NCBI RefSeq assembly: GCF_049060185.1
Contig: NZ_JBMEQO010000002.1
Length of the DNA stretch: 64,000 bases
DNA from: Nannocystis pusilla
GTDB taxonomy: Bacteria > Myxococcota_A > Polyangia > Nannocystales > Nannocystaceae
Direction: 5' to 3' (one strand)
The stretch's first letter is position 1. Every line of letters starts with the position of its first letter. The position numbers were made by a program, and so were the translations under genes. The notes below the pieces were generated by a model that saw nothing but the letters and a program-made list of their open reading frames with translations, was not told the DNA's origin and ran no database searches. Of this stretch, positions 2,697 through 2,812 are shown piece after piece.

Positions 2697-2812
2697 GAGA
2701 GGACAGGTCCGAGAGGGCAGGTCCGAGAGGGCAGGTTCGAAAGGGCAGGTTCGAAAGGGCAGGTCCGAAAGGGCAGGTCCCAGGAGCAGGTCCGAAAGGT
2801 CAGGTCATCGAG
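2697..2812. repeat. Tandem array of 8 x 14-bp units (consensus GGGCAGGTCCGARA), related to the GGACATGTCC motif family
   Basis: Sequence reads ggacaggtccgaga|gggcaggtccgaga|gggcaggttcgaaa|gggcaggttcgaaa|gggcaggtccgaaa|gggcaggtcccagg|agcaggtccgaaa|ggtcaggtcatcgag with an exact 14-bp period. The last unit overlaps the stop of the upstream minus-strand gene (TGA at 2800-2802). Confidence 0.8.

Follow-up and report, generated by a model that had tools for sequence, protein, structure and literature searches.

Arrays of a 10-bp palindromic box in a 14-bp register at gene 3′ ends of Nannocystis, with a possible REP/BIME-like role

The DNA that we analysed, called the window below, is a 64-kb stretch of Nannocystis pusilla, and its features are collected in Table 1. 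It contains two arrays of short boxes with a period of 14 bp. The array at 2697 lies between a gene for an FHA-domain protein and a gene for a Ser/Thr protein kinase, both of which are read from the minus strand. The array at 57060 lies in a convergent intergenic region of 110 bp between the stop codon of a dienelactone-hydrolase-family (DLH) gene (57047-57049, plus strand) and that of a WD40-like gene (57160-57162, minus strand), and with this position between two stops it cannot be a promoter element. The kinase has orthologs of 448 aa. The source of the window is shown by its open reading frame 1085-2116, which matches 342 of the 343 residues of a kinase fragment annotated in one N. pusilla genome, and by a neighbouring protein with 94% identity to N. 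pusilla. The upstream gene is orthologous to FHA proteins, as had been supposed, but Pfam finds no FHA domain in the frameshifted copy of the window, and in most of the orthologs the domain is weak (it is not marked weak in L126, L128 and L129). Since the kinase, FHA, DLH and WD40-like genes are all frameshifted, the assembly is prone to indels. It is also noted that a minus-strand open reading frame, 1085-4138, runs across the array at 2697, by which the array would be a coding repeat; this frame is a GC artefact, since by comparison with the orthologs the stop of the FHA gene is at 2800 and the kinase begins at 2429.

Table 1. Genes, arrays and other box sites in the window
Coordinates	Strand	Feature	Basis
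1085-2429	-	Ser/Thr protein kinase gene, frameshift near 2067-2104	Pfam Pkinase E 7.5e-34, orthologs
2432-2696	-	rest of the FHA-to-kinase intergenic region, 36-40-bp repeats	TRF rows 2477-2699
2697-2812	-	14-bp array, 8 boxes, CAGG (plus strand) / CCTG (sense strand) variant	TRF, ortholog comparison
2800-4141	-	FHA-domain protein gene, frameshifted, stop codon 2800-2802	tblastn to N. punicea L125 4295-5641
12900-12923		two boxes, centre of a 46-bp palindrome, convergent intergenic region	box matches
16143-16180		three boxes; gene 16214-17014 (-) stops 33 bp upstream of them	box matches, gene calls
28675-28740		four to five boxes, intergenic	box matches, gene calls
36289-36412		three box pairs (36289-36312, 36322-36345, 36389-36412)	box matches, gene calls
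41852-41875		two boxes; gene 41898-42851 (-) stops 22 bp upstream of them	box matches, gene calls
56114-56137		two boxes within a segment of about 240 bp absent from N. pusilla-like strain L121	comparison with L121
56217-57049	+	DLH gene, frameshift near 56940; stop 11 bp before the 57060 array	Pfam, comparison
57060-57129		canonical 5-box array, GGRCATG conserved	TRF, box matches, cross-species comparison
57160-59366	-	WD40-like hypothetical gene, frameshifted, converges on the 57060 array	94% identical to N. pusilla P0001
60442-60465		two boxes; gene 59909-60436 (+) stops 6 bp upstream of them	box matches
61820-61959		box groups of three, two and one; fill a convergent intergenic region	box matches, comparison with L121

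The two arrays had been noticed in a sequence-only reading, and both inspection of the sequence and Tandem Repeats Finder (TRF) place them where that reading put them. TRF gives a period of 14, 8.0 copies, 86% matches and 2% indels for 2696-2806, and two period-14 rows (57074-57109 and 57105-57131) for the second array. On the plus strand the boxes of the first array start at 2701, 2715, 2729, 2743, 2757, 2771, 2784 and 2798, and those of the second at 57060, 57074, 57088, 57102 and 57116. The period had been called strictly 14 bp, which is right for nearly all of the steps, but the step from 2771 to 2784 is 13 bp. Two pairs that had been given spacings of 13-14 bp, 56114/56128 and 61819/61832, are real with a spacing of 14 bp, the second being located at 61820/61834. 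The core GGRCAKGTCC, as it had been written, is strongly enriched, but the true core is a 10-bp palindrome, GGRCATGYCC, of which the CAGG form in the array at 2697 is a variant.

The unit of the arrays is this twofold-symmetric box plus a spacer of 4 nt of free sequence, which is why the period is 14 bp. The central CATG (box positions 4-7) is conserved at 86-95% and the GG and CC flanks at about 76-78%, with position 3 being mainly A or G and position 8 mainly T or C. Arrangements that look inverted, such as CATGTCC-N4-GGACATG, represent the same 14-bp register spanning two palindromes. The sequence GGACATGTCC, which is its own reverse complement, occurs in 10 perfect copies in the window. 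GGRCAKGTCC occurs 26 times versus 0.70 expected, with none of 100 shuffles reaching that number, and GGRCAKG 120 times versus 43.7 expected, so that an artefact of chance or of base composition is ruled out by the shuffles. Near-matches to GGACATGTCC with up to two mismatches form 16 pairs spaced by 14 bp, and spacings of 1-13 or 15-23 bp do not occur; when up to three mismatches are allowed, the pairs number 40 at 14 bp, 18 at 28 bp and 8 at 42 bp. Because these spacings are exactly 14, 28 and 42 bp, both arrays belong to one dispersed family, with about 20 box sites in the window having two to six boxes each (8 in the array at 2697). At one of these sites, 1 bp separates the third pair of 36289-36412 from the stop codon of gene 36414-37091 (minus strand). 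The recurrence of the unit consensus at other sites had been named as a point on which the first description could fail, and the consensus is found there again. The view that the two arrays are independent loci is replaced, both being members of a genus-wide family that is biased towards gene 3′ ends and convergent intergenic regions.

The spread of the family was followed in several sets of sequences. One genome of each species was scanned for three GGRCAKG cores in phase, and the first 120 matches were inspected. Among these matches listed, 28 are from Nannocystis (N. exedens, pusilla, punicea, radixulma, bainbridge, RBIL2 and metagenome-assembled genomes), and conserved boxes with drifting spacers occur only there; the others listed, mostly cyanobacterial, are nearly all runs of a 7-bp heptamer or arrays of near-identical 14-bp units, and a bacteria-wide 14-bp repeat is rejected on this ground. 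The Nannocystis loci have 146 box pairs with a spacing of 14 bp versus 8 with one of 12, 13, 15 or 16 bp, and the family is found in all of the Nannocystis loci that were compared. The loci L121-L127 were obtained via orthologous proteins and hence were not selected for arrays; in them the 14-bp signal is present in N. pusilla, N. punicea, N. bainbridge, N. radixulma and two Nannocystis-like metagenome contigs, and it was not seen in Paraliomyxa, Enhygromyxa or Sorangium, with one locus of each being compared. A metagenome search with a stricter pattern of three perfect boxes gave 35 stretches, with about 0 expected by chance on our own estimate. Two of the loci, L148 and L159, carry an unrelated 14/15-bp satellite and were set aside; the remaining Nannocystis-like loci from metagenomes have about 150 pairs with a spacing of 14 bp versus about 5 with 13 or 15 bp (about 97% at 14). 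The arrays have the form [GGRCATGYCC + 4 nt]n, with n = 2-6 in the Nannocystis loci, where even numbers are not favoured; arrays from the metagenomes reach n = 8, and a single locus (L127) has about 23 boxes. The three-box pattern was not found in viral contigs, and a phage origin is rejected. No known RNA family was found in the window by Rfam at gathering thresholds, and the searchable literature gave no description of such a repeat in Nannocystis or other myxobacteria. Together, the arrays make up a large repeat family of Nannocystis, a genus of myxobacteria, that is seemingly undescribed. As a separate observation, 43 of the 88 arrays in the metagenome data lie at the ends of the examined loci, many of which are contig ends, so the arrays probably break short-read assemblies.

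The position of the arrays relative to genes was counted over three pooled sets, namely the pattern-selected loci together with the window (our own GC3-based gene calls), L121-L127 (database calls) and the metagenome loci. With most of the gene calls coming from the crude GC3-based caller, the convergent intergenic regions, which number 100 (24% of regions), hold 67 arrays (56% of arrays), the co-directional ones 43 (36% of arrays; 225 regions, 54%) and the divergent ones 10 (8% of arrays; 90 regions, 22%), the distribution over the classes differing from the inventory of regions with a chi-square p = 2e-21. Where the genes are co-directional, the distance from the upstream stop codon to the start of the array is for most arrays no more than about 35 bp, and several convergent regions are almost wholly array, with 8-17 bp left on each side. 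For E. coli REPs, about 60% are reported in convergent, 40% in tandem and 1% in divergent regions, with about 30% of the convergent regions being occupied (bioRxiv 10.64898/2026.03.23.713779). The array distribution is close to that reported for the E. coli REPs and unlike that of promoters or iterons. The suggestion that the arrays are unusual for iteron- or operator-type promoter elements is therefore borne out by the share of only 8% in divergent regions, and many of the arrays are in convergent regions, where a promoter is unexpected.

The array at 57060 is conserved across species. Five boxes in register are present after the WD40-like gene in the window, in N. pusilla-like L121 (about 93% DNA identity to the window), in N. 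punicea L122 and in N. bainbridge L123, the WD40-like proteins of these four species being 70-94% identical. In N. bainbridge the five-box array is kept even though the converging DLH gene is missing. In N. radixulma there is no array after the WD40-like gene, the synteny being different there. Across the species three of the boxes have an invariant CATG and the remaining two a nearly invariant one, while the spacers and the outer box positions vary freely. The length variation and contingency behaviour that had been envisaged for such arrays is not found here, with five boxes in all four species. Our best reading is that this array is a canonical, conserved and bidirectional member of the family.

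The array at 2697 behaves differently. It had been placed exactly between the FHA stop and the kinase promoter; it is indeed intergenic for the most part, but its last box (2798-2807) overlaps the FHA stop codon, and no link to a kinase promoter is found, with the kinase ATG at 2429 lying about 270 bp beyond the array and a promoter not being identified. An array is present at this locus in every Nannocystis relative compared, and its copy number, for which a comparison across relatives had been suggested, is not the same from strain to strain or from species to species. The window has 7-8 boxes, N. pusilla Na p29, with a kinase that is 99% identical over residues 110-448, has 6-7, and N. punicea has 5-6; L126 (kinase 78% identical) has about 4-5 boxes of the ordinary CATG type, and L127 (kinase 72% identical) about 23 boxes. 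In Paraliomyxa the FHA and kinase genes overlap without a spacer. The units within these arrays, including the 23-unit array of L127, are near-identical, spacers included, which indicates local amplification and homogenisation. The central symmetry is lost (CCTG) in every box of the array at 2697, and the array is still kept in three genomes. The remainder of the intergenic region, 2432-2696, has repeats that are G-rich on the plus strand and C-rich on the sense strand, and its length differs between N. pusilla strains. Over the whole 370 bp between the genes, N. punicea and the two N. pusilla strains have a sense strand that is rich in pyrimidines and in C; in L127 the strand asymmetry is reversed, with the G-rich orientation being on the sense strand. 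As a contingency repeat, the array at 2697 has the near-identical units and the difference between N. pusilla strains given above, versus the fixed five boxes at 57060; as the arrays come after stop codons, neither a reading frame nor a promoter spacing is obviously affected by a change in length. Based on these data, the array at 2697 is best read as a strand-asymmetric (CAGG/CCTG), locally homogenised derivative of the family, the length of which has been altered by slippage or unequal exchange.

It had also been proposed that the arrays are hairpin-forming or slipped-strand structures. The hairpin potential is strong, with the arrays folding better than shuffles by z of -2 to -5. The stretch 57045-57145 on the plus strand gives -51.9 kcal/mol (z -5.3) with two stems of 11-12 bp, and its minus strand -38 kcal/mol (z -2.6); 2690-2815 on the plus strand gives -49.2 kcal/mol (z -5.5) through G-U pairs. 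On the strand that is transcribed by the flanking genes, however, the array at 2697 folds no better than shuffles (z -0.94), so this part of the proposal is not supported there, and at this array the hairpin function on the sense strand may be lost. For the 21 arrays that have one upstream gene only, folding of the sense strand does not differ from that of the antisense strand (Wilcoxon p = 0.72). An RNA-level strand preference is therefore rejected, and a bias of CCTG over CAGG on sense strands is contradicted by L127. Adjacent boxes are complementary at 7.02 of 10 positions, hardly more than shuffled partners (6.84). Positions 3 and 8, whether within a box or between neighbours, show no clear compensation in two independent data sets (odds ratios of about 1.0-2.0), with nominal significance reached only by the first set's outer pairing (p = 0.03); a mini-hairpin within the box, with a GGR/YCC stem and a CATG loop, is rejected because the two positions do not covary. 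No run of T was found after the arrays, which despite their hairpins do not have the make-up of intrinsic terminators, and in 50000-64000 there are 3 canonical sites of a hairpin plus a T-run versus 2.5 expected, none of them at arrays.

Based on these results, we propose that the arrays are Nannocystis-wide extragenic palindromic boxes at gene 3′ ends that work like REP/BIME elements, a reading that we consider about as apt to be right as wrong. In this proposal, transcripts coming from either side of an array would fold via mutually complementary neighbouring boxes into stems of 10-12 bp with 4-nt loops and no U-tract. The folds would then give rise to a pause, to factor-assisted termination or to a barrier against 3′-exonucleases, by which the 3′ ends of one or both of the flanking genes would be defined and protected. 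By analogy with what is now proposed for REPs, this bidirectional definition and protection of the 3′ ends of the flanking transcripts is the most likely role. Several results count against this proposal: the 14-bp register is stricter than hairpin loops need, the arrays have no U-tract, the complementarity of neighbouring boxes is marginal and shows no clear compensation, both strands fold equally well, the sense strand of the array at 2697 folds no better than shuffles, and the hallmarks of REPs are missing. The rigid register, the near-invariant CATG and the lack of covariation together imply that the letters and the register are constrained, not merely the pairing, and such a constraint points to a sequence-specific factor. 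We thus infer that a trans-acting factor reads the box letters and the 14-bp register; it could be a protein that reads each box on the duplex DNA, or an enzyme that propagates the boxes. For REPs such an enzyme is the RAYT (Y1/HUH) transposase, whose single-copy gene is flanked by the repeats. A crude regular-expression scan of 649 kb with the motif Y..NP..AG gave no RAYT match, which says little on a gene present once per genome, and we know of no RAYT gene in Nannocystis.

The same constraint on letters and register can be viewed from another side, with the arrays being sites in double-stranded DNA. One dimer of a Nannocystis-specific protein would bind to each box and the dimers would polymerise cooperatively on the 14-bp register, with each step turning by 480 degrees and three boxes making four helical turns, while the hairpin potential would be only a by-product of the palindromy. 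The resulting nucleoprotein block at gene ends would terminate transcription as a roadblock, serve as an insulator or supercoil element, or organise the nucleoid. This model accounts directly for a register that is rigid although the spacers are free, for near-invariant CATG with flanks conserved at about 78%, for the independent variation of R3 and Y8, as is expected of independent half-sites, for the folding without strand asymmetry, for box numbers of 2-6 without preference for even ones, and for letters and phase that are kept across species while the spacers change. On the other hand, no candidate protein was identified, the boxes of the array at 2697 have all lost their central symmetry while the array persists in three genomes, half-site centres that are 5 bp apart are unusual for helix-turn-helix dimers, and we are not aware of any bacterium in which thousands of gene ends are marked by a sequence-specific protein. 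We regard the protein array as a serious rival, possible although on the whole unlikely.

A further reading is that the boxes are selfish or neutral, being spread by a RAYT-like or other enzyme or by slippage and gene conversion, with the gene 3′ ends simply tolerating their insertion; the array at 2697 would then be a slippage-expanded microsatellite. The near-identity of the units at 2697 and in L127, including the spacers, is the signature of recent local amplification, and the copy number of the FHA-to-kinase array differs between strains. Moreover, relative to L121, units have been gained or lost at 61820-61959 and the segment of about 240 bp with its box pair is an indel, at a DNA identity of about 93%; and at E. 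coli REP/BIME loci the copy number varies too (PMC3333891). However, if boxes were merely tolerated, it would not be expected that a five-box array stays in register at 70% protein identity, with its CATG cores kept while its spacers are saturated, and this conservation at 57060 makes the selfish or neutral reading less likely. Indels in the spacers are almost absent, which argues for purifying selection. It also counts against this reading that the scan for a transposase, crude as it was, found none in the 649 kb, and that the 240-bp segment has no copies elsewhere, by which a MITE or mobile element is ruled out for it. Taken together, we think it rather improbable that the family is selfish or neutral.

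A bolder form of the functional reading is that Nannocystis marks the ends of a large share of its transcription units with phased arrays of the 10-bp palindrome that are read by a dedicated sequence-specific factor, which binds cooperatively on the 14-bp register, providing bidirectional termination or insulation. Roadblocks of the mTERF or Reb1 type offer an analogy for such factor-dependent reading of gene ends, but we know of no such sequence-coded, factor-dependent system of termination or insulation in bacteria, and we hold this form to be improbable.

Finally, for the array at 2697 only, it could be supposed that the region is a C-rich, G-poor, unstructured leader or Rho-utilisation region that attenuates read-through into the kinase gene, or a promoter-proximal regulatory array; the pyrimidine-rich sense strand of the 370 bp in the three genomes, the sense RNA that is no more structured than shuffles, and the recurrence of YC-rich units about every 14 nt, which is close to the RNA site size of one Rho subunit, are in line with this, but with the G-rich orientation on the sense strand of L127, the ordinary CATG boxes of L126, the overlapping genes of Paraliomyxa, neither a promoter nor a rut site being demonstrated and the family as a whole having no skew of C over G, it is very unlikely.

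The REP/BIME-like reading bears on how transcription units end in very GC-rich bacteria that do not have canonical terminators of a hairpin plus a U-tract. A recognisable code after stop codons throughout a genus gives an experimental handle on this question, and the boxes could be of use as a marker for annotating gene ends in Nannocystis, whose genomes have 11-13 Mb. The family also presents an unusually clean case for the issue of host-selected versus selfish REP-like elements, with the box, the register and even the box number being conserved while the spacers are free.

Among the known systems, a CRISPR array is ruled out, since it has repeats of 23-50 bp and unique spacers of similar size, while here a 10-bp repeat and a 4-nt spacer occur at hundreds of sites; it came into question solely for the layout of a repeat with a free spacer. 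The STRR-like heptamers of cyanobacteria and ordinary 14-bp microsatellites match the search pattern but do not have a conserved box with a free spacer, and are unrelated. HIP1 (GCGATCGC) of cyanobacteria resembles the boxes in being short, perfectly palindromic, specific to its lineage and present in vast excess; it differs in being dispersed in coding and non-coding DNA, with no fixed register and no bias to gene ends. The DUS of Neisseria and the USS of Haemophilus are over-represented motifs of about 10 bp, often paired downstream of genes where the pair forms a stem-loop or terminator. They resemble the present boxes as conserved, over-represented motifs of about 10 bp that are paired after genes, but they are non-palindromic, frequent within genes and not arranged in phased arrays of 6 or more. 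The met-boxes of MetJ, the omega heptads and the ParR-parC iterons are head-to-tail sets of 2-10 short boxes in a rigid register that bind cooperative ribbon-helix-helix dimers, and thus are the model for the reading by a protein on double-stranded DNA. Their periods are however 7, 8, 10-11 or 20 bp, and they reside in promoters or plasmid centromeres, few per replicon, not at hundreds or thousands of gene 3′ ends.

The REP/BIME elements and REPINs share the most with the family. They too are short, species- or genus-specific extragenic palindromes in many copies, occurring singly or in tandem clusters, with a bias to convergent and co-directional regions, near-absence from divergent regions and no U-tract; their sequence is conserved beyond the need of base pairing, and their copy number at a locus varies between strains, as reported for E. 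coli (PMC3333891). The present boxes are likewise extragenic and multi-copy with a lineage-specific consensus, and, mostly by our own gene calls, are placed at 3′ ends. The differences lie in the unit: a REP is an imperfect palindrome of 30-40 nt with a 5′ GTAG, linkers of several lengths and alternating orientation (PMC3333891), whereas the Nannocystis unit is a 10-bp palindrome with a perfect consensus, in a rigid 14-bp register and without GTAG, and its boxes show no clear compensatory covariation. For these reasons we describe the family as working like REP/BIME and do not file it as a member. Nevertheless, given the abundance, the distribution, the lineage specificity, the clustering, the lack of a U-tract and the change in copy number, REP/BIME is its closest known analogue.

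Phased boxes, that is, copies of the 10-bp palindrome GGRCATGYCC set in a 14-bp register, are also present within long open reading frames of the window. At 24138-24390 there is a tandem repeat of 48/93 bp, in which GAGATGTCGTGAG-GGACATGTCC, comprising two phased boxes, is present in three copies. The repeat falls within ORF 23797-25620 (minus strand), the N-terminus of which is radical-SAM-like, and if translated in this ORF the copies would give GHVPHDIS three times, once as GHVPHDTS. The repeat may be a coding linker, or the gene may be split, with an intergenic array. Perfect boxes together with a 3-box chain are also seen at 22095-22132 and 22628-22637, within the long TPR-like ORF 21314-23371 (minus strand), which has no in-frame stop; here either the array is in frame or two genes have been merged in error. 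It is noted that a two-box look-alike at 1145-1168, within the 3'-terminal part of the coding sequence for the kinase, encodes PEEHVPKDLP and is present at the equivalent position in the orthologs (7264-7287 in the N. punicea locus L125 and 7261-7284 in L126, a relative's FHA/kinase locus with ordinary CATG boxes). This look-alike is taken to be a coincidence arising from coding constraint and not a member of the box family. Coding tandem repeats are listed in the table, together with the genes that need a frameshift.

Frameshifted genes and coding tandem repeats in the window
Feature	Window coordinates	Description
Ser/Thr kinase	1085-2429	frameshift needed for match to orthologs
FHA protein	2800-4141	frameshift needed for match to orthologs
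Dienelactone hydrolase	56217-57049	frameshift needed for match to orthologs
WD40-like	57160-59366	frameshift needed for match to orthologs
Coding tandem repeat	29814-31124	12/24-bp, up to 27 copies, in 436-aa ORF
Thr/Asp-rich coding repeats	33574-33750	GAC/ACC; putative secreted protein
Thr/Asp-rich coding repeats	54494-54852	GAC/ACC; putative secreted protein

The four frameshifted genes probably reflect an indel-prone assembly rather than genuine pseudogenes; the kinase is annotated in the deposited genome as a 343-aa fragment. Of 88 arrays in the metagenome loci selected by the three-box pattern (L131-L165), 43 are at a locus end, in many cases also the end of a contig, suggesting that the box arrays interrupt short-read assemblies. 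In two of these loci (L148 and L159, GC 0.61) the GGGGCATGCCCCATG satellite, with 14/15-bp units, has no relation to the box family.

Box pairs are also found in other settings. A perfect 46-bp palindrome at 12886-12931 (gaatgaatggtgataCATGTCCtcctGGACATGtatcaccattcat) has two boxes at its centre and lies in a convergent region, 11 bp past a stop codon. The segment of about 240 bp at 55940-56187, carrying the box pair 56114-56137, is missing from the N. pusilla-like strain L121 (13224-13235), and a search through 650 kb of Nannocystis DNA gave no second copy of it.

In the spacer between the FHA and kinase genes, the remainder beside the array (2432-2696) consists of 36-40-bp repeats, with the plus strand being G-rich and the sense strand, which is transcribed by both genes, being strongly C-rich. 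The spacer length varies among N. pusilla strains (about 370 vs 233 bp), and at the equivalent position N. punicea has repeats of about 70 bp that are unlike the N. pusilla ones. In the Nannocystis-like metagenome contig L127 about 23 copies of GGACAGGKCGcttc occupy this spacer (9616-9932); there the sense strand is the G-rich one, the asymmetry being reversed relative to N. pusilla. Nearby, at 6790-8238, is the gene of a bpMoxR AAA+ ATPase of the MoxR-vWA-beta-propeller ternary system (Pfam E 4e-77), and the synteny of this gene and its neighbours (4609-6812) with the FHA and kinase genes is kept in N. punicea, in L127 and in Enhygromyxa.
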